Positions 3,019 through 57,012 of a DNA stretch of 64,000 nt are shown in pieces (position 1 is the stretch's first letter; each line of letters opens with the position of its first letter). This DNA is from a virus (taxonomy: Duplodnaviria > Heunggongvirae > Uroviricota > Caudoviricetes): IMG/VR virus record IMGVR_UViG_2703718819_000006. The stretch is one strand, 5' to 3'. Below the pieces are notes generated by a model that searched no databases, was not told the DNA's origin, and saw only the letters and a program-made list of their open reading frames with translations. The position numbers and the translations under genes were made by a program.

Positions 3019-3038
3019 TGGTAAGTATATACTTACCA
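3019..3038. promoter_or_regulatory. family-2 palindrome TGGTAAGTATATACTTACCA upstream of major tail gene
   Basis: Perfect 20-bp palindrome in intergenic gap 3007-3044. Confidence 0.5.
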
Positions 3039-8436: not shown

Positions 8437-10011
8437 TCACTCGTTCTCTTGAGTAGATGAGTCCCCATTCCCTCGGGGTTGATCTTGCCCGCTTTCTTGG
8501 GCTGCACCACGATCATAAGTAAGTACTGACTTATTTTCAAGGGTATTTAGATCATTTTTTGGAGGAAAATTCAAGAGATCTTTATCAAATTCCTTTTTCA
8601 TCGCCTCAGTAATGTTCGGGAAAATCTTCTCAATAAGCATTTCCATCTGGTGACGACGTACAGAGTCCGGTGCCTGAAGTAATGACAGTTTCTCGGCAAC
8701 AGCAAATTCATCAGTAAGGCCACGAATATCGAAACTTTCTGGATACGCAATTAAAGAGTGGTCTTCGTCCAGATCTACCCCCATCCATTTCGCAACCAGT
8801 AGCATGATTTGGCGTTCAGCCCTTTCCAGACGCTCTGCTTTTGTGACAAGCAAGCTATTTACACGCTGGAAGTCATACATTTTTGCGGCACCAGATGAAT
8901 TATCGATTCCCTGTGCGTTGTCCTGCTTCGTTCGCTCACCAGCTACACCAACTGAATGGTAGATTTCGTTAATCACCGTCTTAATCGTAGTGATGATCAT
9001 CTGAGCTTGTTTCGGGTCTGGTGACAGATAAAACGGCTGGTTTCCACCTTCAGAATCGTAGGTGAAGACTCGCTTTGTGCCCATTTCAAGCACTTTAGTG
9101 TGGTTTTCATCACCAGGTAAAAGCGACTGTACCGGTATAGCCAACTGGCTAAATGTCTGATCCTGAATAATGGCATCAAGGTTTGACAGATAGTTTGCAA
9201 CCGCACGATCAAGATAAGCGATATCATCGATCAACGATGGGCTGAAATACGGTGATTCACTTTCTCCAATACAATCAACAGGAAACACAGGAACTACGCC
9301 GAGATTATGCTCACCGCTATCCTCTAAAATAACTTTTGCCTGACGGCGACCTGCTCCACCAGCGCCCTTCTTCACTTCCTCACGGAACAGATACCACTCG
9401 TTTTGTGTCCACAGACGATAACGTTGGTATTCCTGACCTGTAGAAGTAAAAGGATCTGCGTCATCACGAGCGACTTCCACAATTAACGCCCACAACATAT
9501 TCCCGTCGTCGTCCCATGCCACATCCAGCATTTGCTGAGGTGAAATCCAGTAGGCGTAGGCGCGAGCATCTTTCTTTTTCTCGTCAGCTACTGACTCAAC
9601 ATCACCACTCATCGTGCTATCGACAACAACCCATATGCGACCGTAAATAGACGACTGCAAATCAATAGCGGCCATAAATGAGTCAATAGAGGCATTCTGG
9701 CGAGTCGCACGTTTCCAGAAATTGCGGATCTGCTCTGGTGCCTCTTCGATATTTCTATGAATGTCTTCTTTAAAGAGATATTTGTTGATGAGGTTTACCA
9801 CCTCACGAGTGTGGTTGAAACGATAAGCACGCTCAACTCGCTCCTTAAACTCCTGATCTCCCTCTTTAAAGTAACGAAAGATATTGTCTGTAAACCAACC
9901 ACGCCCGCCAGCGTAAGTGCTGGCGAGGAAGTCCCAATGTTCTTTTTTCTTTTCGTATTCCGGGTGGCGTCGCGCCACCAGATCCTTAATTTGTTTGTCG
10001 TTCAATTCCAT
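8437..10011 (-). CDS. portal protein
   Basis: 524 aa ORF immediately downstream of terminase large subunit; size and position typical. Confidence 0.6.
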   Translation of the reverse strand: MELNDKQIKDLVARRHPEYEKKKEHWDFLASTYAGGRGWFTDNIFRYFKEGDQEFKERVERAYRFNHTREVVNLINKYLFKEDIHRNIEEAPEQIRNFWKRATRQNASIDSFMAAIDLQSSIYGRIWVVVDSTMSGDVESVADEKKKDARAYAYWISPQQMLDVAWDDDGNMLWALIVEVARDDADPFTSTGQEYQRYRLWTQNEWYLFREEVKKGAGGAGRRQAKVILEDSGEHNLGVVPVFPVDCIGESESPYFSPSLIDDIAYLDRAVANYLSNLDAIIQDQTFSQLAIPVQSLLPGDENHTKVLEMGTKRVFTYDSEGGNQPFYLSPDPKQAQMIITTIKTVINEIYHSVGVAGERTKQDNAQGIDNSSGAAKMYDFQRVNSLLVTKAERLERAERQIMLLVAKWMGVDLDEDHSLIAYPESFDIRGLTDEFAVAEKLSLLQAPDSVRRHQMEMLIEKIFPNITEAMKKEFDKDLLNFPPKNDLNTLENKSVLTYDRGAAQESGQDQPRGNGDSSTQENE

Positions 10012-10022
10012 TTGAATAACCT

Positions 10023-10042
10023 TAGATAATTACTTACCTATC
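10023..10042. promoter_or_regulatory. family-2 palindrome TAGATAATTACTTACCTATC
   Basis: Overlaps TerL stop, 12 bp upstream of portal start. Confidence 0.4.
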
Positions 10043-11294
10043 GAGAACCACCAAGAATAACACGGTTTTTGACTGGATACCTACGATGTACTGGATAGCC
10101 CAATGCGTCTGCACTATGCTCAATGCCACCTGTCTTATCCATATCTCGTGTTCCAGGCTTGTAGATGACTTTTTCCAGTGAATCAATCAAATGCTTGCAC
10201 TTCGGATCGATATACAACCGGATATCTCCAGATGCGGTCATCAGCATTCGGTTAACAGCATTAACACGATCCGCAATTGGCGGGTGCTTTTTCGAATAAT
10301 CGACACGTAAGAATCCCTTCTCTTTGAATATGTCGACGTCAGACTCCCCGCGAGCATGTTGGCGATAAGCACCTGCCGGATCTGGAAATACCGTTATCTG
10401 TGATTTCCAGCGCCAGAAGCGTCTCTCAAGCTCATCACAAACCTCTGCCGTGTTAGAGGAAAAGAGCACCAGTTCATCAATTGCCCATAGCTCACCGTTT
10501 GGCTGAGGTTGCAAAATTACGGAAGACATCGGGTCAATGTTGAAGTCCTGCCCTACCCATATAGGCAACCGAGGGTTGAACTGAAGCGGTTTTACATGCA
10601 CGTTACGATCGAACGGGTAGTAAACGCGCCCGGACATATTTTCAAAGCTGGCCAGGTACTCCTGAGCGAACGATTTAGGGTCCATATCGTTCTTAGCAGC
10701 TTCAATTTCCGCCGTAGGCACAAACGGAGAATCAGCAGTTACAAACTGCCAGCTCTTCCACTGTCCCTTTCTTTGCAGCTCTACGTTCTGGCCTATAGTC
10801 CACAGTTTGTGAAATTCCGAGAAGCCTTTTGGCGTACCAATGATCAGTGCACCGCCGCGTGTCGATGAAAGGGTAGGTCGTAGCACCTTGTACCAGGTGT
10901 CAGCCTTCATATCCTGAAATTCATCAAGCACTACAAAATGCAATGCAACGCCGCGCAGAGTGTCAGGCTTATCAGCACCTTTGAGGGCGATCTCCGAACC
11001 GTTCTTCAACACGATTGTCATCGTGGTGTCGTTCTTTTTCCTAACCCACTTACGAGGCAGAACTTCCTGTATATCGTCCCACAAAATCTGGCGAGCCATC
11101 TGGTAAGTAGGAGCGACATACCAGACCCTTTGCTTTTTTTCCTTTGCCGCCGCACGAATAATAGTGGAGATCGACAACCGGGATTTTCCCCAGCGTCGAC
11201 CAGCACAAACAACTTTAAATCGATGCGGAGACTGGAAGACTTTCATCTGTCCAGAATGCAGTTGCACAAGACTGAGCGAGGACGGGATTGCCAT
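10038..11294 (-). CDS. terminase large subunit
   Basis: 418 aa; N-terminal Walker A (VVCAGRRWGKS), Walker B-like VLDEFQD, C-terminal nuclease-like region; preceded by small-terminase-like gene. Confidence 0.8.
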   Translation of the reverse strand: MAIPSSLSLVQLHSGQMKVFQSPHRFKVVCAGRRWGKSRLSISTIIRAAAKEKKQRVWYVAPTYQMARQILWDDIQEVLPRKWVRKKNDTTMTIVLKNGSEIALKGADKPDTLRGVALHFVVLDEFQDMKADTWYKVLRPTLSSTRGGALIIGTPKGFSEFHKLWTIGQNVELQRKGQWKSWQFVTADSPFVPTAEIEAAKNDMDPKSFAQEYLASFENMSGRVYYPFDRNVHVKPLQFNPRLPIWVGQDFNIDPMSSVILQPQPNGELWAIDELVLFSSNTAEVCDELERRFWRWKSQITVFPDPAGAYRQHARGESDVDIFKEKGFLRVDYSKKHPPIADRVNAVNRMLMTASGDIRLYIDPKCKHLIDSLEKVIYKPGTRDMDKTGGIEHSADALGYPVHRRYPVKNRVILGGSR

Positions 11295-11926
11295 TATTCG
11301 TCCTCCCCTTCACTTCCATCATCTGTCGCATCAAATTCGCTTAGAGCTTCTTCTTCCAACGTCTCAAGCAATTCGTCATCGATGATTTCAGGCTCGTCGT
11401 CTTCCTGACGTAATTTCGCCACCTGGGAAGGCGTAAGCTCACCAAATACCAGGTTCGGAATTTCTTCCTCGTCATTTTCCGCATGATCCATGCCCAATGC
11501 TTTGGACGAAACTTCAAAGCATTTTGCAAGGGTATTACTGGCTCTCTGTAAGCTCTTGAGAGAATCCTCAATCGCCCCTAAAGGCTTACCCTCACGTTTG
11601 GCCGTAGTGACTTCGACCATCACCATCTGCCCCAACGCATACGCCCAGCCGTCATAACGTGTACGACGTTCTTCTATCTTTTCCGCACGGGCTTTAGCGC
11701 GAAGCTCTGCGTCAGATTTAAGAGACTCACGAACCATCTTCCCAACAGAGTCCGCGCCTTTCTCTAATCCTCGCTTTTTGAAATGTCTGGAGAGTGTTTC
11801 ACGACGAATGCCGTACTCTTCCTCCAGCTTTGAGAGTGTATATTCGCCTGACGTCCATTTGGCTTCAGCTTCGGCCCACTCCGCTGGTGTCAGGCGAGTT
11901 TTTACCTCGTCTTTTTCGACCGTCAT
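11294..11926 (-). CDS. terminase small subunit (HTH N-terminus, acidic C-terminus)
   Basis: 210 aa; N-terminal HTH-like segment (TLSKLEEEYGIRRETLSRHFKKRG), strongly acidic tail; stop overlaps TerL start. Confidence 0.5.
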   Translation of the reverse strand: MTVEKDEVKTRLTPAEWAEAEAKWTSGEYTLSKLEEEYGIRRETLSRHFKKRGLEKGADSVGKMVRESLKSDAELRAKARAEKIEERRTRYDGWAYALGQMVMVEVTTAKREGKPLGAIEDSLKSLQRASNTLAKCFEVSSKALGMDHAENDEEEIPNLVFGELTPSQVAKLRQEDDEPEIIDDELLETLEEEALSEFDATDDGSEGEDE

Positions 11927-12022
11927 AGATCCCTCTAAAACACACAGAGCGCGTCCATGCGCTCTAAAACAACTTGTTTACTGCATCTGCTAACCAACTT
12001 GTTTTCTGGGGTGTTTAATTAG

Positions 12023-12119
12023 GTCTGGCATGTCTTACGAAGCCTGCTTCCGTATATATATTTAATAAGTTACTTATTATTTATATACAGAAGCAGGTCT
12101 TTAAATAAGCTCCCAGACC
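12023..12119. repeat. nested long palindrome (core 12043-12098, arms CCTGCTTCCGTATATA / TATATACAGAAGCAGG around AT-rich palindromic loop; outer GGTCTGG/CCAGACC)
   Basis: Seen in sequence; near-identical copy at 42072-42130. Confidence 0.7.
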
Positions 12120-12121
12120 GA

Positions 12122-12388
12122 TTACATCACCAGTAACTTCGCTTTGGCTCGACCTAAAGTAGTTAACCCAAGAGTTCGGCGGTGATAGCGATTGTCACTG
12201 CGTTGGCGCGTATGCCCTTTCTCCACCAGCCCCTTTTTTATCAGAGCGCGAATTGAGAACTGGATACTTTGCTTGGTTGTCTTGTACGGCAAAACTTCAA
12301 GCAATTCGTCCAGGTCAAGTAGATGACCTCGCTCATAACCGAGATTGAGCGTTTTGATGATGTCCTTTTGTTTATCGGTTAACGTCAT
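12122..12388 (-). CDS. small basic protein, possible DNA-binding regulator
   Basis: 88 aa, Lys/Arg-rich; no motif-level assignment. Confidence 0.3.
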   Translation of the reverse strand: MTLTDKQKDIIKTLNLGYERGHLLDLDELLEVLPYKTTKQSIQFSIRALIKKGLVEKGHTRQRSDNRYHRRTLGLTTLGRAKAKLLVM

Positions 12389-12397
12389 GGCAAATCC

Positions 12398-13297
12398 TTA
12401 TGCCGGTAAAGCAATTTCTAACGGTTTATCCAAAGGTTGTTTGTCGAATGCCAGCAGTGGCAGCGTGTCAGGCAGTCGACGACCAAAGTCAGGGTTTCGA
12501 TACACACCATACAACGGAGACGTAAAGCTCAGGTTGTGAATGTCCTTGAGCAGCTTCACAATGCTGGCCTCGTCCACCAGACTGTCGGCAATGTCCTGAA
12601 TCGTCGTGCCACGATTCCGCCCAGCTTTTGCCAGGGAACTGTTCTTGTGGTAGTCCGCCACCAGATCACGCAGTGCACGGCGACGACGAGACTCGCTCAT
12701 AGCGAACAACTCTTTGACGATCGCCTCGTTATCACCCGGGTCGGAGCGGAAATGGCGCTGGAACACACGCAGTGCACTTTCATAGCTCTTCGGTCGCTCA
12801 GGGCGGATGAACTTAAACCCTGCTTTCATGGCGAAGGGATTGTATTTGCTCATCGATGACTGGATCTCAATGATTGGCCGGTCATGCATCCTGCTAACCA
12901 GGTTAATCATTCGATAAGAGACGCCTACGCCACGGTACTGAGTATCCACAACTGAGCGGCTGATCACCGCAAAGTTGTTATTCACGTACCGGCCCCAGTA
13001 CTGGTTAGCCACGGTGGTATTGGTGGTTGGTTTCAACTTAGGAAACATGCGATGGCGAGGTGCCAGCAGAAGTTTCGGGTAAGCCATAACCACGACGCCC
13101 ACCAGACGGTCATCCAGTTCGCAGCGATAGTATGTTGGCGCGAAAGGTTTGCCGTCTGTTTTGTAGTGAAGCGACTTAAGAGCGTGCCAGTCCTCTACAG
13201 TTCCCTTTGTGACAGTCATTCGCTCCAGAAAGTCCAGATGACGCGGAAACTCTTCAGGGCGGTAGCGTTTGATGATGATATCTGCCATGTCGATCAC
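12398..13297 (-). CDS. hypothetical protein (possible GNAT-like motif RGVGVSYRMI), last gene of ParB/ATPase operon
   Basis: 299 aa; start overlaps stop of 13294..13548. Confidence 0.35.
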   Translation of the reverse strand: MIDMADIIIKRYRPEEFPRHLDFLERMTVTKGTVEDWHALKSLHYKTDGKPFAPTYYRCELDDRLVGVVVMAYPKLLLAPRHRMFPKLKPTTNTTVANQYWGRYVNNNFAVISRSVVDTQYRGVGVSYRMINLVSRMHDRPIIEIQSSMSKYNPFAMKAGFKFIRPERPKSYESALRVFQRHFRSDPGDNEAIVKELFAMSESRRRRALRDLVADYHKNSSLAKAGRNRGTTIQDIADSLVDEASIVKLLKDIHNLSFTSPLYGVYRNPDFGRRLPDTLPLLAFDKQPLDKPLEIALPA

Positions 13298-13548
13298 CTG
13301 CGCTCGATATTGGCATTGATGAAATCCAGGCGAAGAGACTCCATCGCCCCTACCATGACATACGGGCGCCCGCCGTTATGCCAGCAATCAAGAACACTGC
13401 CGTCGTTGTTGATCATCAACAGCGCCAGGCTCTGGCTTTTTCCTTCTCTGGCGTGCTGAAGTGCTTCTTCCAGCAGGCGGATGACTTCCACGTTGTTGTT
13501 ATCAGTCTCTTTCGATGGCTTCAGCTCTACGATCTTCAAATCAGGCAT
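13294..13548 (-). CDS. hypothetical small protein in ParB/ATPase operon
   Basis: 84 aa; overlapping start/stop with both neighbours. Confidence 0.35.
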   Translation of the reverse strand: MPDLKIVELKPSKETDNNNVEVIRLLEEALQHAREGKSQSLALLMINNDGSVLDCWHNGGRPYVMVGAMESLRLDFINANIERR

Positions 13549-14179
13549 ATTCCACCTTCACGCGTTCTTTGTAGTGCTTGGTGATCTGCATATCCGGGCG
13601 CAGCGCGTTCTTCAGGTCTTCGTGAGTCGTCGCCACCATTACCGTCGCACCAACCTTTCGAGCGGCACGCTGGAGGTTAGATGCCACAACCTGAGCGGTT
13701 ACACGGTCTAGAACAGCACCGAACTCGTCAGCAGCCCACACTTTAGCGCCTGACTCAATCAGTTTGGCAATCTTGAGACGATATTTCTGGCCGTCTGACA
13801 TTTCAGAAGGCTTGCGAACAAACAGATATGCATCGTTCAGACCAGCCATAGATAACAACCCAAGCGCATCACTGGTCGTTTTGCCCAACTGATCGATGAC
13901 GTTAACCTCATTATCGAAGGTAAAATCATCGATGGAGGCTACAGACAGCCCTTCATCCTTCATCTGTCGTTGCAACTCGCGCAGCACAACGGATTTGCCG
14001 GAACCGGATTGGCCGGTGATGTACACCACATCGCCCTGCTTCACTTCCAGCTCCAGATTGTCGTAAAGCGTCCACTCTTTTTCGTCCAGGCCAAGCCCGA
14101 ACGACTCAGCGATTTCCAACGTGCGCGTGGTTTTATTTACGCGTGTCTGAAACGATACGTTGATGATGTATTTGCTCAT
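13541..14179 (-). CDS. minimal ABC-type ATPase (nucleotide-binding-domain-like)
   Basis: 212 aa; Walker A GQSGSGKS, signature-like SDGQKYRL, Walker B VWAADEF, H-loop-like TTHED. Confidence 0.6.
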   Translation of the reverse strand: MSKYIINVSFQTRVNKTTRTLEIAESFGLGLDEKEWTLYDNLELEVKQGDVVYITGQSGSGKSVVLRELQRQMKDEGLSVASIDDFTFDNEVNVIDQLGKTTSDALGLLSMAGLNDAYLFVRKPSEMSDGQKYRLKIAKLIESGAKVWAADEFGAVLDRVTAQVVASNLQRAARKVGATVMVATTHEDLKNALRPDMQITKHYKERVKVEYA

Positions 14180-14877
14180 GCAGCCATCTCCCCGGAAGAG
14201 ATCTTCTCCGCATATGCCACAAATGCGTCTACCCCGCTTTCTCCCGTCATTTCTTCCATGTGGGCAAGCAAATCACCAACAACAATGGCAGAGCCAGCAG
14301 GAAGCGTTTTAAAGCCCAATACGTCGACAACACGTACTTCTTCCGCTGCAACTTCACGACTGATCTCGGTGTGTTCATCCTTCTGTCGTTTAGTTTCTTC
14401 GCCAAGATCGATAACTAGCGAGTCGGTGTCCATTTCTTCTGTCATACTGCCAACGAGAACATTCAACTCACGCTCTTCGAAGCCGAAAACCTCGATATCG
14501 TCCAGAACAAGCGACTCAAGCTCTTTCTGTAGCTTAATTGCATCGTAATCAATGCTGGCAAGTCGGTTATCTTCAAGGCGCTTTGCACGTACCTCGTCAT
14601 CACTCAGATCATCACGAACAATAACCGGTACGCGCTCAAGTCCAGCAAAAATTGCAGCCTCACGGCGGCCGTGGCCAGTAATAATTACGTCGTTCTTATC
14701 GACCGTAATTGGCTGGTCAAATCCGCGCTTTTTAATGGCTGCGGCCAGATCTCTGATCTGCTGTTCATCATGCTTTTTGGCATTCATCTCATAGGGAATA
14801 AGATCTGCCGGGTCGCGATATACGATTTCAAACTTTTTGGTCATTACATACGCTCCTTGTAGTAGTCGACCAGCCAC
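14176..14877 (-). CDS. ParB-like (ParB/Srx fold) domain protein
   Basis: 233 aa; N-terminal ParB-type box (IITGHGRREAA) with acidic C-terminus. Confidence 0.55.
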   Translation of the reverse strand: MAGRLLQGAYVMTKKFEIVYRDPADLIPYEMNAKKHDEQQIRDLAAAIKKRGFDQPITVDKNDVIITGHGRREAAIFAGLERVPVIVRDDLSDDEVRAKRLEDNRLASIDYDAIKLQKELESLVLDDIEVFGFEERELNVLVGSMTEEMDTDSLVIDLGEETKRQKDEHTEISREVAAEEVRVVDVLGFKTLPAGSAIVVGDLLAHMEEMTGESGVDAFVAYAEKISSGEMAA

Positions 14878-15542
14878 ACCAGAGCCTCACCAGCGTTCTC
14901 CATTTCATTACCGGTGTTAATAGCCTGCTCTTTGATGATGTTTTTTATGGTTTCTGCAACACGATCTGACGCATCGAAAGTTACTTTGAAGCGCATGGTC
15001 TGATGTTCCGCACCCACACGTTCGGTTTTCTCTCGTTTGTCGGTATCGACAGGCTCATCACTACCACGAGACAACGCCTCCAGTGCTTCAAGGTCGATTG
15101 CCGCCTCTTTTGCTAAAACCATCGAGATTTCGTCGTCATACGGAGCGATTTCAGACAGTTGATAGTCAAGTTCTGACTGAATTTCTTCAATGAAGCGTTG
15201 CAATGCGATTTGGTCGTCTTCACCGTATCGCTCGTTGTCCACCAGTGACATCTGTTTAGCTACGACATCGCTAATTTTGCCCACAGAAAGCACCGGAACC
15301 GTTGAAATTCCTTGCTCAATAGCAGCACGCCAGCGATGTTCACCTCCGAGAATTTCAAAAAATCCACCTTCAAGTTCACGAGCCAAAATTGGCTTAAAAA
15401 AGCCCAATTTTTCGATAGAACCTTTCAGTTTTTCAAAATTCTGCGCACCAACCGAATTGGTGTTCCAGGTATTCGGGCGAAGGTTGGCAACATCAACCTG
15501 CAAAATCGTGATTTTTACATCCATTTTATTGCTACAATCCAC
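14844..15542 (-). CDS. ParB-like (ParB/Srx fold) domain protein
   Basis: 232 aa; N-terminal ParB-type box (EILGGEHRWRAAIEQG). Confidence 0.55.
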   Translation of the reverse strand: MDCSNKMDVKITILQVDVANLRPNTWNTNSVGAQNFEKLKGSIEKLGFFKPILARELEGGFFEILGGEHRWRAAIEQGISTVPVLSVGKISDVVAKQMSLVDNERYGEDDQIALQRFIEEIQSELDYQLSEIAPYDDEISMVLAKEAAIDLEALEALSRGSDEPVDTDKREKTERVGAEHQTMRFKVTFDASDRVAETIKNIIKEQAINTGNEMENAGEALVWLVDYYKERM

Positions 15543-15543
15543 T

Positions 15544-15561
15544 AAGTAATTACTTACTTAT
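15544..15561. promoter_or_regulatory. family-2 palindrome TAAGTAATTACTTACTTA in divergent gap
   Basis: Perfect palindrome between ParB-like operon start (15542) and helicase start (15607). Confidence 0.5.
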
Positions 15562-15606
15562 TATAATAGCCAAATAACATACAAAAGGCACTAAGGAAAG
15601 AGGTTT

Positions 15607-17166
15607 ATGACTGTTCGGATTGTATCTAACGCAGTAAATGCGCTTATTTCTGGCGCAGATGACAAGGTAAAGCAACTGGTGCAGCAAATGTTGAGCTACG
15701 AAGTCGAGACTGGCGACTGGAAGGGCACAAGCACGATGTTCAACTGGAGTAAAAACTCGTTCCCTGCTGGCTTTGCCAAGCCTGTAGCGGCGAACTTGAA
15801 CAAGGCGGGCATCAAATGTGTTCATATCCGCAAAGACAAAGCCCCGGCGCTTGGTAAACCAAATCCGGCGGTTAACCCATTCCCATACAATCCTGATTAT
15901 GCGTATCAGGATCAGACTGTGGAAACACTGGTTCGAGAGGGAATGATGATTGCGCAGATCGCTACTGGTGGCGGGAAATCTAACGTTGCCTGCAAAGCAG
16001 CTGCACGTATCGGTCGAATGACATTATTTTTAACAACCCGCTCTGTTCTGATGTTTCAAATGGCCGAAAACTTCCAGAGATCCATCGACTACCGCGCCGA
16101 AAATGGCGAACCGTGGTTAAAGGGCCAAAAGGTTGGAGTCATTGGCTCGGGTGAGTTCCAGGTATCACGACATATCAACGTCGCTACAGTTCAAACTCTG
16201 GCAAGTTTCCTTGAAGAACCACCACGCGATGCAACACCAGATAAAAAGAGCTACCACCTCAAACGTCGGGAGTTGGTGAAACGCTTCCTTTCAAGTGTGT
16301 CTCTGCTTATTCTGGAAGAAGCGCATGAGTCTTCAGGCTCTAATTTCTATGACATTGCCAGATTATGTGTGAACGCAGACTATCGTCTGGCGCTTACAGC
16401 CACGCCGTTCATGAAGGATTCGACGGAAGCCAACATGCGCCTGATGGCGGTGGCCGGGCGAATTGAAATTAAAGTCACAGAAAAGTACCTGATTGATCGA
16501 GGCATTCTGGCAAAGCCGTACTTCCTTTATCATAAAGTTGCCTACAAGCCAGACGAGGCCAGAATCAAGGCCGAACTTGCCAACAAACACCTCAATTTTA
16601 GAGTTGGTATGAGCACCGCCTACCAAAAGGCTTATCAGTTGGGGATCGTGTATAATTTGGGACGTAACGAGGCCATAGTGCGCGAGGCATTGCTTTATAA
16701 GCAACATTCACTCAACTGCATGACTCTGGTTCGTCTTAAACGCCACGGGCAAATCCTGATGGAGATGATGAAGGAGTCAGGTCTTAAAGTTGATTTCATC
16801 TATGGGGAATCTAACCAGACGACAAGGCAAGCAAAGCTGAATAGTTTAGCGTCTGGTGAAATAGATGTTTTAATAGGCTCGACTATTCTGGATGTTGGTG
16901 TTGATGTGCCAAGCGTTGGTGCGGTCATTCTTGCTGGTGGTGGGAAAGCAGAAGTTGAAATGAGACAGCGTGTCGGTCGTGGCTTACGAGCCAAAAAAAA
17001 TCAGGCAAACGTGTGTTTTATCACTGATTTCATTGACATTAGCAACAAATACCTGTTGTCTCACTCTTATGAGCGAAAACACATCATCGACACCACACCT
17101 GGCTTTGCAGAAGGTGTATTGCCTATTGATGGAGCATTCGATTTTGGAGTTCTGAAACGAGATTAG
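15607..17166 (+). CDS. superfamily-2 (DEAD/DEAH-type) helicase
   Basis: 519 aa; motif I ATGGGKS, motif II LILEEAHE, motif III LTATP, motif VI VGRGLR; good SD (AGGAAAGAGG) upstream. Confidence 0.75.
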   Translation: MTVRIVSNAVNALISGADDKVKQLVQQMLSYEVETGDWKGTSTMFNWSKNSFPAGFAKPVAANLNKAGIKCVHIRKDKAPALGKPNPAVNPFPYNPDYAYQDQTVETLVREGMMIAQIATGGGKSNVACKAAARIGRMTLFLTTRSVLMFQMAENFQRSIDYRAENGEPWLKGQKVGVIGSGEFQVSRHINVATVQTLASFLEEPPRDATPDKKSYHLKRRELVKRFLSSVSLLILEEAHESSGSNFYDIARLCVNADYRLALTATPFMKDSTEANMRLMAVAGRIEIKVTEKYLIDRGILAKPYFLYHKVAYKPDEARIKAELANKHLNFRVGMSTAYQKAYQLGIVYNLGRNEAIVREALLYKQHSLNCMTLVRLKRHGQILMEMMKESGLKVDFIYGESNQTTRQAKLNSLASGEIDVLIGSTILDVGVDVPSVGAVILAGGGKAEVEMRQRVGRGLRAKKNQANVCFITDFIDISNKYLLSHSYERKHIIDTTPGFAEGVLPIDGAFDFGVLKRD

Positions 17167-22595: not shown

Positions 22596-22611
22596 GTAAG
22601 TATGTACTTAC
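22596..22611. promoter_or_regulatory. family-2 palindrome GTAAGTATGTACTTAC
   Basis: Upstream of start at 22552. Confidence 0.4.
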
Positions 22612-35575: not shown

Positions 35576-35595
35576 AGGTAAGTATTTACCTATCA
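35576..35595. promoter_or_regulatory. family-2 palindrome TAGGTAAGTATTTACCTATC
   Basis: In gap upstream of 35531 start. Confidence 0.45.
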
Positions 35596-47595: not shown

Positions 47596-47611
47596 ATAAG
47601 TAACCACTTAT
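47596..47611. promoter_or_regulatory. family-2 palindrome ATAAGTAACCACTTAT
   Basis: Upstream of TS start. Confidence 0.4.
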
Positions 47612-56992: not shown

Positions 56993-57012
56993 ATAAGTAA
57001 GTATATACCTAT
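56993..57012. promoter_or_regulatory. family-2 palindrome-like ATAAGTAAGTATATACCTAT
   Basis: Upstream of sbcD start. Confidence 0.35.

Follow-up and report, generated by a model that had tools for sequence, protein, structure and literature searches.

A string of small genes beside the terminase genes of an SSU5-like phage-plasmid raises the question of what two ParB-like proteins, a stand-alone ABC-type ATPase and their neighbours do in a tailed phage. For the 64,000-nucleotide stretch of this element analysed here (referred to as the window), an initial annotation had grouped five minus-strand genes with a divergent helicase, recognised no named module in the combination, and suggested that it may serve DNA modification or counter-defence.

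Organization of the locus

An ORF check confirmed the proposed six-gene layout, with all genes at the claimed coordinates and on the claimed strands (Table 1). ParB1 probably starts at the ATG at 15524 (226 aa) and ParB2 at the ATG at 14844 (222 aa), while the annotation of relatives points to a slightly later start for the 299-aa protein as well (ATG at 13288). With these relatives-based later starts, the ParB1 and ParB2 genes overlap by 1 nt, the ParB2 and ATPase genes by 4 nt (ATGA), and the ATPase gene and the 84-aa ORF by 8 nt; the 84-aa ORF and the 299-aa gene either overlap by 4 nt or are 5 nt apart, and a 9-nt gap separates the 299-aa gene from the 88-aa ORF. The translational coupling proposed for the minus-strand genes therefore holds (overlaps of 1-8 nt, gaps of at most 9 nt), because the junctions overlap or nearly touch even with the later starts. 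Downstream, a PHROG 867 match falls in the TerS/TerL region (10038..11926).

Table 1. Coordinates of the module, its neighbours and nearby sequence elements in the window.
Feature	Position	Strand	Description
Hel519	15607..17166	+	XPB/Rad25/UvsW-like SF2 DNA helicase, divergent
Palindrome TAAGTAATTACTTA	15543-15556		Perfect 14-bp palindrome in the divergent intergenic region; candidate operator
ParB1	14844..15542	-	ParB/Srx N-terminal (NTP-binding type) domain, acidic linker, small C-terminal domain
ParB2	14176..14877	-	Second protein with a ParB/Srx N-terminal domain
ABC212	13541..14179	-	Stand-alone minimal ABC-type ATPase
s84	13294..13548	-	Small ORF; cargo of the variable slot that separates the ATPase and GNAT genes
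G299	12398..13297	-	GNAT-fold acyltransferase (residues ~25-165) with a conserved C-terminal helical/beta domain
wHTH88	12122..12388	-	Small winged-helix-like DNA-binding protein (predicted), 88 aa
Near-perfect 55-bp palindrome	12043..12097		Between the wHTH88 and TerS genes
Terminator-like hairpin	11945-11966	-	Just downstream of the 55-bp palindrome
TerS-like DNA-binding protein	11294..11926	-	Directly downstream of the module; from relatives' annotation and conserved order
Terminase large subunit (TerL)	10038..11294	-	Downstream of the module; from relatives' annotation and conserved order
Portal gene	8437..10011		After the terminase large subunit

The membership of the five-gene set needs correction. 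The 84-aa ORF, counted as one of its components, is better regarded as cargo outside the module core: it is missing in phage Cyrano, its slot is filled in other relatives by unrelated genes (Tad2-like, thioredoxin), and its homologues are located in unrelated prophage head-tail modules. Conversely, the 88-aa winged-helix gene had been overlooked, as had the strong linkage to the terminase genes. Homologues of wHTH88 directly follow the GNAT gene in nickie (32% identity), RHEph10 (26%), BUCTxx99 (44%), and many genome loci, and comparison of these loci makes it the sixth conserved gene of the string. It gave weak matches to Sta1/Lrs14 and LexA_DNA_bind, and belongs to PHROG 900.

The divergent 519-aa protein was correctly read as a DEAD/DEAH helicase; it carries the Pfam domains DEAD, ResIII, and Helicase_C, and its PDB sequence matches are XPBII, Rad25, and UvsW. 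Its inclusion in the system is harder to sustain, since its linkage to the module is confined to the SSU5/nickie lineage, in which synteny is retained, and no specific similarity was found to the helicases near the module in other phages. We consider it a lineage-specific neighbour and an unproven candidate member of the module. The palindromic control site that it was thought to share with the operon is partly borne out. The 14-bp palindrome is present, and is one copy of a TAAGTA-NN-TACTTA motif recurring between genes of the window (10 matches against 0.17 expected with up to two mismatches; 9 against 0.24 expected with up to one mismatch, nearly all intergenic). It is conserved only in part among relatives, and a control role is plausible but unproven because its left half is not kept in SSU5 itself. 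The region of the 55-bp palindrome and the hairpin may delimit transcription, or may have a regulatory or packaging-related function.

The ATPase-GNAT pair and the ParB proteins

ABC212 matches Pfam ABC_tran (50.2 bits, E 5.3e-13), and all canonical motifs can be read in its sequence (Walker A GQSGSGKS, signature MSDGQ, Walker B AADEF, and H-loop TTHE). The glycine-rich motif suspected in the 299-aa protein is real (R122-G-V-G125), the protein is a GNAT, and its acyl-CoA-type motif is intact; some annotations already give it the COG2401 name. Its GNAT domain is no nearer to the DNA-modifying enzyme Mom than to ordinary protein or small-molecule GNATs, and Mom appears, with a weak match, among its nearest structural neighbours within viral models. 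Both ABC212 and G299 align over their full length with single proteins of about 485 aa, the former end-to-end with the N-terminal ~210 aa. A profile search returned 977 matches, many of the remote ones fused. By these alignments, ABC212 and G299 are the N- and C-terminal halves of a split form of a single ABC-ATPase-GNAT protein (COG2401 type), which is common in viruses.

Both ParB proteins match Pfam ParB_N above the curated cut-off, in agreement with the two separate ParB/Srx-fold proteins seen initially. ParB1 (49.2 bits, E 5.7e-13; PHROG 723) contains the motifs GGEHRWRAA and DNER; its paralogy with ParB2 is confined to the N-terminal domain (32% over 116 aa). ParB2 (35.0 bits, E 1.5e-8; PHROG 930) also matches phrog_498 'DNA methyltransferase' (E 5e-32) and the N-terminal region of PADLOC MTase_II (E 2.7e-17), and is nearest to the ParB domains of ParB-methyltransferase fusions. 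Further, its BLASTP match to the N-terminus of P0242 (E 2e-7) leads to a triple fusion: in five proteins, a single polypeptide carries ParB, ABC, and GNAT (ParB HMM E 5.6e-16 to 1.4e-8; BLASTP). Because fused ABC-ATPase-GNAT proteins exist, some of them also with ParB, the three form one functional unit, which backs the earlier proposal that the genes work together. As judged from sequence, the core of the locus would thus be a three-part enzyme system encoded in separate genes (two ParB/Srx proteins, an ABC ATPase, and a GNAT), together with the winged-helix protein.

Distribution, terminase linkage and accessory genes

Of 30 loci from alpha-, beta-, and gamma-proteobacterial assemblies, every complete one has this gene order, and the order recurs, with proteins about 40% identical, in phages of Pseudomonas, Rhizobium, and Stenotrophomonas. 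Such conservation is far beyond chance. ParB1 is present in all related loci. ABC212 retains 52-64% identity in the most distant ones and is conserved as much as TerL, which suggests a core rather than an accessory function. A ParB gene followed by ABC and GNAT genes, fused or split, also occurs in unrelated phages (Leptospira LE4, Gordonia Axumite and Jace, Lactococcus P335, and Oenococcus Vinitor-27). The hosts comprise Proteobacteria, Firmicutes, Actinobacteria, Spirochaetes, and probably Archaea.

Across very distant viruses, the ATPase-GNAT pair adjoins the terminase genes in two gene orders. The module lies directly upstream of them in SSU5-like, nickie-like, LE4, Axumite, P335, and SL25 phages. 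Of the 56 viral loci with a 400-560 aa ORF on the same strand immediately upstream, on the other hand, 52 have the terminase large subunit as that ORF, and the stop and start codons often overlap; other neighbours gave nine more terminase matches, and TerL linkage was found in 61 of 80 viral loci. The link thus outlasts the change in gene order. ParB is less constant: it was not found near the fused gene in 79 of the 80 environmental viral loci, so ParB-based DNA targeting is not universal.

In other phages, accompanying genes suggest small-molecule acyl chemistry. Jace encodes an aspartate decarboxylase (PanD; E 2e-33) and a CoA-transferase III, which as a pair would yield beta-alanyl-CoA, and Axumite encodes a formyltransferase-like protein. 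Terminase aside, the fused gene has ASCH domains in its neighbourhood more often than anything else (7 of 128 neighbour ORFs), and they are directly adjacent to it in five loci plus one weak match; Vinitor-27 has one as well. ASCH proteins hydrolyse N4-acylcytosines (PMC6972931), and are reported to erase tRNA ac4C (bioRxiv 10.64898/2026.02.27.708502). The window's own module contains no ASCH, PanD or CoA-transferase gene.

Possible functions of the module

The combination turns out to have been predicted before. By the account given in PMC7824862 (Iyer et al. 2021), Aravind's group proposed that coupled GNAT and ABC ATPase proteins acylate a base of DNA (Iyer, Zhang, Burroughs & Aravind 2013), and the label COG2401, 'ABC-type ATPase fused to a predicted acetyltransferase domain', denotes the same family. 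The system described there has the same two catalytic domains with full-length homology to those of the window, its named example, phage pT24, is among the matches of the window's ATPase, and it is phage-encoded and ParB-linked in several lineages, as here. The match is to a prediction rather than to a characterised system, because the activity of the family is predicted only; the literature searched held no chemical or genetic data on any module member. In contrast to that system, the enzyme in the window is split into two genes with a cargo slot between them, is accompanied by two paralogous ParBs rather than one or none and by a conserved winged-helix gene, and is fixed upstream of TerS and TerL in one phage lineage.

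The main rival to DNA acylation is a packaging-linked role. The repeated tight linkage to TerL is atypical for DNA-modification genes, and could mean that the ATPase-GNAT pair (with ParB where present) serves the terminase and does not mark DNA, perhaps by acylating a protein of packaging or of the head (TerS, TerL, the portal) or a DNA-bound host protein needing removal, or by recognising or preparing the packaging substrate. The TerL-like conservation of the ATPase is consistent with this, as is the intein inside the ATPase of one relative (P0169), inteins being usual in essential replication or packaging proteins. We nevertheless consider such a role unlikely, since neither a GNAT nor an ABC ATPase has a precedent in tailed-phage packaging, the genes of pT24 and P12024S lie amid replication genes away from terminase, and genes at the early/late boundary often adjoin terminase merely through operon layout. 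Moreover, PanD, CoA-transferase, formyltransferase-like and ASCH proteins suit nucleobase or small-molecule chemistry better than packaging mechanics. That chemistry would also suit a functional analogue of TmcA/NAT10 making N4-acetylcytidine or a related mark on tRNA or other RNA, for translation tuning or escape from tRNA-targeting host defences. TmcA, which acetylates C34 of tRNA-Met (PMC13219725), likewise couples an NTPase to a GNAT acylating the exocyclic amine of a base, as predicted for the window; the ASCH domains encoded beside the viral genes suggest such chemistry here too and, because ASCH proteins act on tRNA ac4C too, fit an RNA target equally well, and phage nickie has tRNA genes near the module. 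An RNA substrate is nonetheless improbable: the NTPase of TmcA is a RecD-like helicase rather than an ABC type, a domain search found no NAT10/TmcA (DUF1726) or tRNA-binding domain in ABC212 or G299, an RNA enzyme would have no evident reason to be linked to terminase, and the fused or adjacent ParB-fold proteins and the conserved winged-helix protein point to DNA.

The ParB proteins themselves suggest a plasmid-type function, in which they would act in partition or as KorB-like clamps on dispersed palindromes, with the ATPase as motor and the GNAT incidental. The element is a phage-plasmid, database names include 'ParB-like partition protein', both ParBs keep the N-terminal fold with the GxxRxxA NTP-binding motif, and the 14-bp palindrome borders the ParB1 promoter region and has about nine intergenic occurrences, a pattern resembling KorB operators. 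This is the least probable of the explanations considered, as the ABC signature and H-loop mark the ATPase as ABC-type rather than ParA (CbiA/ParA Pfam 19.1 bits against a cut-off of 25.4), NCBIfam partition models score far below their cut-offs, and fusions in relatives join the ATPase to GNAT, in some cases with ParB as well. The module also occurs in phages described as lytic (LE3/LE4) and in non-plasmid ones (P335 and Gordonia phages), and RHEph10 has a separate ParA-like gene. The module is neither a ParA/ParB partition system nor a transporter; the initial annotation had likewise seen no transporter partner for the ATPase. Very improbable, too, is an effector that counters defence without acting on phage DNA, with the GNAT acetylating a defence or housekeeping protein of the host or the ParB/Srx proteins acting as anti-host NTPases or nickases. 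Phage GNATs such as Rac do acetylate host RNA polymerase, ParB/Srx domains are nucleases or NTPases in conflict systems (both reviewed in PMC7824862 and PMC5512222), and the slot within the operon gathers anti-defence cargo, e.g., Tad2-like genes. However, the module is inherited strictly vertically with the packaging genes and is conserved to a TerL-like degree, which is not the pattern of typical anti-defence genes, PADLOC gave no system matches, and the wide host range, from Proteobacteria to Spirochaetes and probably Archaea, argues for a universal or phage-encoded substrate.

DNA modification thus remains the best available reading, and we tentatively favour a model in which phage DNA is acylated late in infection, possibly at N4 of cytosine, in an ATP-dependent reaction assisted by ParB. 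A GNAT enzyme that modifies dsDNA is known in Mom of phage Mu (PMC13219725), although this adenine modifier acts alone, requires neither an ATPase nor a ParB, and draws on Gly-tRNA instead of acyl-CoA, whereas G299 keeps the CoA-type motif A and has an extra C-terminal domain. In phage thymine dioxygenases (5mYOX), a short ParB-like protein with NTP-binding and C-terminal domains lies beside the post-replicative DNA-modifying enzyme and is its obligatory activator (PMC13229309); there the enzyme is an Fe/2OG dioxygenase instead of an ATPase-GNAT, and dependence on the two ParBs of the window is putative. The comparison with Dpd drawn initially serves as an analogy, in that DpdB, a ParB-like ATPase, assists a base-modifying enzyme and Dpd clusters include SF2 helicases, but the module has no TGT/DpdA homologue or preQ0 pathway genes, and the helicase matches DpdF only weakly (PADLOC, E 1.6e-3).

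For DNA acylation, transcription of the operon would coincide with that of the packaging genes or slightly precede it. The ParBs, probably a heterodimer and possibly NTP-gated clamps, would together with the winged-helix protein recruit the enzyme to replicated phage DNA or activate it. ATP would drive an ABC dimer whose work may expose a base or allow travel along DNA, and the GNAT would move an acyl group from acyl-CoA to an exocyclic amine, with cytosine N4 as our best guess. A counter-defence role is only inferred. The gene set is widespread in viruses, and in its SSU5-family version seen here the packaged DNA would be chemically marked and protected against host nucleases.

Gene content and conservation of the module in SSU5-type phage-plasmids

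The region matches Escherichia phage CMS-2020a at 99.3% identity and Salmonella phage SSU5 at 84%, and the window is therefore regarded as an SSU5-type phage-plasmid. Related loci lie mostly on contigs of 100-118 kb, in enterobacterial and many other proteobacterial assemblies. The six ORFs of the initial annotation were all recovered at the same positions, and the minus-strand string contains a sixth gene that had been overlooked, wHTH88, an 88-aa ORF located 9 nt past the gene of the 299-aa protein (referred to as G299). The annotation of close relatives suggests later starts for ParB1 (15524), ParB2 (14844), and G299 (13288). Whichever starts are used, neighboring genes abut or share 1-8 nt, which confirms the tight coupling proposed for them. 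Both ParB-like proteins, ParB1 and ParB2, indeed exceed the Pfam ParB_N cut-off, and the 212-aa protein (ABC212) is an ABC ATPase as proposed, with 50.2 bits against Pfam ABC_tran (cut-off 25) and every ABC motif present in its translation, i.e., GQSGSGKS (Walker A), MSDGQ (signature), AADEF (Walker B), and TTHE (H-loop). The divergent helicase Hel519 has the DEAD/ResIII and Helicase_C domains (Pfam) of an XPB/Rad25/UvsW-like SF2 enzyme.

Features of the module and its surroundings in the window, with protein identities in the most distant related loci
Feature	Position	Strand	Identity	Description
Portal	8437..10011		44-56%	
TerL	10038..11294		54-64%	
TerS-like	11294..11926			
Hairpin	11945-11966	-		terminator-like, ~20 bp ahead of TerS start
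Long palindrome	12043-12097			55 bp, AT-rich, near-perfect, with GC clamps
wHTH88	12122..12388	-		88-aa ORF
G299	12398..13297	-	37-45%	299-aa GNAT-fold protein
s84	13294..13548	-		84-aa ORF
ABC212	13541..14179	-	52-64%	212-aa ABC-type ATPase
ParB2	14176..14877	-	30-43%	ParB-like
ParB1	14844..15542	-	30-43%	ParB-like
Short palindrome	15543-15556			TAAGTAATTACTTA, perfect, 14 bp, divergent intergenic region
Hel519	15607..17166	+	39-45%	519-aa SF2 helicase
TAAGTA-NN-TACTTA copies (listed positions)	3022-3035, 8516-8533, 15543-15560, 22597-22610, 35579-35592, 47597-47610, 56998-57011			

Synteny, which the initial annotation had proposed to check, was examined with the window proteins as tblastn queries against 35 loci, of which 5 are phage records and 30 come from genomes of alpha-, beta-, and gamma-proteobacteria. 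All complete loci keep one order, consisting of the helicase (divergent), ParB1, ParB2, ATPase, a variable gap, GNAT, a small ORF, TerS, TerL, and portal. The ATPase is conserved as much as the terminase, and therefore does not behave like part of an accessory cassette. The small ORF behind the GNAT gene, i.e., wHTH88, is homologous across lineages (26-44% identity) and, from its sequence, looks like a winged helix.

Two of the genes initially grouped with the module appear to be neighbors rather than components. The 84-aa ORF s84 is not core: it is absent in phage Cyrano and occupies a variable slot, and its homologs belong to head-tail modules of Klebsiella prophages, where neither ParB nor ATPase nor GNAT lies close by. 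Predicting its structure and searching for its fold gave no informative result. The gap between the ATPase and GNAT genes that s84 fills in the window ranges from 9 bp to 1.2 kb in relatives, and is a cargo hot spot of this lineage with 0-3 ORFs (window 13294-13548; L004 6405-7014; L009, L011, L016, L022, and other loci). Its cargo consists of unrelated genes, including those of Tad2-like proteins (Thoeris anti-defense) and thioredoxins, four of each, as well as a BTLCP transglutaminase-like protease and a PNKP-type HAD phosphatase. As for Hel519, its synteny with the module is confined to this lineage, and no specific relatives are found beside the module in other phages. A helicase as general partner was also rejected, as that of Nonlabens P12024S shares only generic SF2 similarity and that of Tenacibaculum pT24 none.

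The palindromic motif TAAGTA-NN-TACTTA, one copy of which abuts the start region of ParB1, occurs nine times in the window at no more than one mismatch vs. 0.24 expected, nearly always in short intergenic gaps just 5' of minus-strand genes. It looks like a candidate operator for a regulator that binds as a dimer, or like a site of the ParB/KorB kind. The long palindrome between the wHTH88 gene and TerS, together with the hairpin ahead of TerS, points to a transcriptional boundary that is regulated, through read-through or antitermination, or otherwise to a site with a role in packaging.

Several further features of these loci were observed. TerL is interrupted by ~1-1.4 kb insertions, probably inteins or homing-endonuclease elements, in L010 (~10330-11267), L015 (~9927-11392), and L025 (~10560-11882), where the tblastn matches are split in two. 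SSU5-like or related proteobacterial-type phage loci are also found in MAGs assigned to unrelated taxa, namely L008 (“Bacillota bacterium,” whose proteins share 88-99% identity with the enterobacterial module), L009 (“Candidatus Fimivivens”), and L016 (“Candidatus Saccharibacteria”), and hence are likely binning errors. On the Halomonas sulfidaeris chromosome (L035, 1895931-1912766), the whole helicase-to-portal block is present with frameshifted pieces of the helicase, GNAT, TerS, TerL, and portal genes; this copy is an integrated relative, now in decay, of phages that are mostly plasmid-borne. The remainder of the element (window ~17000-64000; L127, i.e., SSU5 50000-98300) encodes its own nucleotide metabolism, including NrdAB, thymidylate synthase, and DHFR. 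Two DNA methyltransferases and, separately, an acetyltransferase of 164 aa are also encoded in L127, so any DNA-modification phenotype may have several contributors.

Relationship to fused ABC-ATPase–GNAT and ParB proteins

G299 is not recognized by any Pfam, NCBIfam, or PADLOC model (its match to Acetyltransf_10 is weak, E 0.038), and a PDB sequence search with its family profile gave no match; its GNAT domain was identified through fold comparison only. The AlphaFold model built from an alignment of 34 homologs is confident (pLDDT 88.6) and has a GNAT fold with the acyl-CoA-binding motif A. In the alignment, GNAT-like motifs A (Y-R-G-x-G-x-S/A/G) and B (N-P-F-A-x-K-A-G-F) are seen, and the last ~125 residues form an additional conserved domain that has no match.

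A profile of G299 homologs retrieved 977 relatives among 1.84 billion representative proteins. Many of the remote ones are 450-500 aa long, with the G299-like part beginning at residue ~200-235 and Pfam ABC_tran ahead of it. In phmmer searches, ABC212 (E 1e-37 to 1e-62) and G299 (1e-12 to 1e-25) match adjoining segments of the same chains, and motifs are common to the window pair and the fused chains over their full length. By these sequence matches, ABC212 and G299 are identified as the two halves of one predicted enzyme, of the same family as the single-chain proteins. The description of COG2401, [quoted passage not shown] fits, and some annotators have already given this name to the 299-aa protein. 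Further, Iyer et al. (PMC7824862), citing a 2013 paper, predicted that a GNAT together with an ABC ATPase acylates a DNA nucleobase, and named phage pT24 (QAX98348.1). Thus, the combination that the initial annotation did not recognize had in part been described. In pT24, ABC212 matches gp038 in tblastn (29.6% identity, 75% coverage, E 3e-11), next to small ORFs that have no Pfam match. No experimental work on this family was found in the literature searched, where the 2013 prediction is known via PMC7824862. The locus is a variant, with the enzyme split, ParB duplicated, and a wHTH gene added, of a type of system so far known as a computational prediction only.

In one of the ABC-GNAT relatives, P0169, the ATPase is interrupted directly after Walker B by an intein that has a LAGLIDADG domain. 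Others (P0154, P0177, P0188, and loci L101 and L104 3580-7362) are called as fusions with a family B DNA polymerase or a TFIIB repeat, which hints that part of the family resides in archaeal viruses or proviruses, although these fusions could be gene-calling artifacts.

The ParB proteins are predicted to be part of the same unit as the ATPase and GNAT, as indicated by gene fusion and adjacency. Five relatives of 664-699 aa (P0242, P0220, P0219, P0224, and P0196) have an N-terminal ParB-like domain followed by ABC and GNAT. A ParB HMM matches these triple fusions at E 5.6e-16 to 1.4e-8, BLASTP against two of them aligns the GxxRxxA region of the window ParB2 (E 2e-7) and ParB1 (6e-5), and Pfam ParB_N is sub-threshold in one. 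Independently of these fusions, a single ParB gene lies directly 5' of an ABC-GNAT fusion or a split ABC and GNAT pair in the unrelated cultured phages Leptospira LE4, Gordonia Axumite, Rhodococcus/Gordonia Jace, Lactococcus P335, and Oenococcus Vinitor-27. Among environmental loci (the best 80 of >556 contigs), a ParB was found near the fused gene in one of 80 with this HMM, which derives from module-linked ParBs and may miss distant ones. ParB1 and ParB2 are paralogous in the N-terminal domain only, and their C-terminal domains give the impression of putative ribbon-helix-helix-like patterns. In ParB2, the similarity is to ParB domains that are fused to DNA methyltransferases (phrog_498, E 5e-32; PADLOC MTase_II, E 2.7e-17). 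A homolog search with ParB1 returned near-identical Klebsiella and E. coli sequences alone.

Terminase linkage and accessory genes

In an IMG/VR scan, an alignment of the fused proteins matched >556 viral contigs. Among the best 80 of these, a same-strand ORF of 400-560 aa lies directly upstream of the fused gene in 56, of which 52 match Terminase_6N, and nine further terminase matches are found among the other neighbors. Whereas the fused gene follows TerL in these viruses, the module precedes TerS/TerL in SSU5-like, nickie-like, LE4, Axumite, P335, and SL25 phages, and the association therefore survives changes in gene order. It is not universal, since the genes of pT24 and P12024S lie among replication genes. 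Many of the IMG/VR contigs break off precisely where the ABC-GNAT gene ends (L045, L049, L051, L052, L057, L059, L062, L063, L065, L067, L074, L076, L078, L081, L112, and L117), several at an identical distance of 1356 nt from where the match begins. Trimming of proviruses at gene boundaries is the probable cause, and a physical genome end was considered but rejected as less likely; less probably, the contigs reflect a genome end or a repeat that is conserved.

Genes that accompany the module in Jace and Axumite may encode donor-synthesis or tailoring enzymes for the predicted modification. In Jace (L120 6101-7212), ParB and ABC-GNAT are directly followed by genes for aspartate 1-decarboxylase (E 2e-33) and for a CoA-transferase of family III (E 2e-8), which together would make beta-alanine and load it onto CoA as a custom acyl donor for the GNAT. 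In Axumite (L037 1805-2452), a formyltransferase-like protein, annotated as a tRNA methyltransferase, follows directly after ParB and ABC-GNAT. Vinitor-27 (L122 6112-6504) has an ASCH-domain protein behind the GNAT. With Pfam, ASCH is the commonest non-terminase family, with seven matches among 128 neighbors of fused genes, although an HMM seeded from the Vinitor-27 protein found none. In five loci (L068, L090, L098, L106, and L111), and weakly in L103, it is a small, directly adjacent convergent ORF that overlaps the 3' end of the ABC-GNAT gene. The ASCH protein YqfB of E. coli is an amidohydrolase for N4-acylcytosine derivatives (PMC6972931), ASCH proteins have been reported as tRNA ac4C erasers (bioRxiv 10.64898/2026.02.27.708502), and acyl groups on adenine N6 are unstable according to a study of Mom (PMC13219725). 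Together, these genes and biochemical data suggest that an exocyclic amine is acylated, and the best guess for its position is N4 of cytosine. The window module contains none of the aspartate decarboxylase, CoA-transferase, formyltransferase-like, or ASCH genes; its donor would therefore be an ordinary cellular acyl-CoA, e.g., acetyl-CoA.

Predicted function and its significance

The best explanation, to which we give somewhat less than an even chance, is that a ParB-assisted, ATP-dependent acyltransferase marks phage DNA late in infection. Such a mechanism is credible in principle, as some phage thymine dioxygenases, a subclass that works on DNA post-replicatively, strictly require a ParB-like protein as activator (PMC13229309), and dsDNA is the direct substrate of Mom, a GNAT enzyme (PMC13219725). 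In the module, ParB genes lie next to those of the putative modifying enzyme, and in some relatives a ParB is fused to it; as for 5mYOX, a ParB may be required for activity. G299 has only the GNAT fold in common with Mom, so it is not a specific relative. A role tied to the packaging machinery itself is the main rival; the unusually strong terminase linkage and the TerL-like conservation of the ATPase speak for it, yet we consider it unlikely. If true, it would add an unknown accessory activity to the genome packaging of tailed viruses.

Acylation of RNA is less likely. Instead of the RecD-like helicase (PF05127), GNAT (PF13718), and tRNA-binding domain of TmcA/NAT10, none of which is matched by ABC212 or G299 in Pfam, the module has an ATPase of a different type. 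A partition or regulatory role for the ParBs is also less likely. There is no ParA-type partner: the one ATPase is of the ABC type (CbiA/ParA match 19.1 bits vs. a cut-off of 25.4) and, in contrast to ParABS, is fused to a GNAT in the module's relatives. The window ParBs score 41.0 and 43.0 bits against TIGR00180 parB_part (cut-off 58.45), and are far under the cut-offs of the Noc and PRTRC ParB models. Nor is the locus a transporter, with no permease among the neighbors (ParB, GNAT, wHTH, TerS, and helicase) or in at least 30 related loci. The suggested comparison with Dpd clusters was not borne out by PADLOC, which gave no DpdA or DpdB match and only weak matches of DpdF models to the helicase (E 1.6e-3 to 8e-3). 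Its defense and anti-defense libraries had no system-level match for the module, and a host-directed effector is again a less likely reading. Phage DLP3, whose DNA resists 15 restriction enzymes, was discarded as evidence of modified DNA, as it does not contain the module; the LE3/LE4 paper has no data on modified DNA.

A more specific form of the DNA-marking explanation, which we regard as possible though rather doubtful, is a DNA base mark novel to viruses: an acylated exocyclic amine, N4-acetyl- or N4-aminoacyl-deoxycytidine here and a beta-alanyl derivative in Jace-like phages, formed post-replicatively by a GNAT that is driven by ATP and activated by ParB, in step with packaging or in physical association with it. 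Acyl groups on bases are labile and easily lost during routine DNA preparation, which could explain why nothing has been reported. SSU5 is a cultivable Salmonella phage, and SSU5-type elements are common in Salmonella, E. coli, and Klebsiella, with the locus also present in assemblies labeled Yersinia. If the mark is real, SSU5-type phage-plasmids, and many unrelated phages, would carry an acylated base that standard sequencing and restriction analysis overlook. Next to Mom, it would represent a second GNAT route to hypermodified DNA, with a different mechanism, shared by hundreds of viruses of bacteria and probably of archaea, among them the phage-plasmids of the SSU5/pHCM2 type in enteric pathogens, and would provide a second experimentally tractable ParB-fold protein repurposed as the partner of a DNA-modifying enzyme. 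It would also mend the annotation of genes widely mislabeled “ABC transporter” and “partition protein,” and give a first function to COG2401 after two decades as an “ABC-type ATPase fused to a predicted acetyltransferase.”
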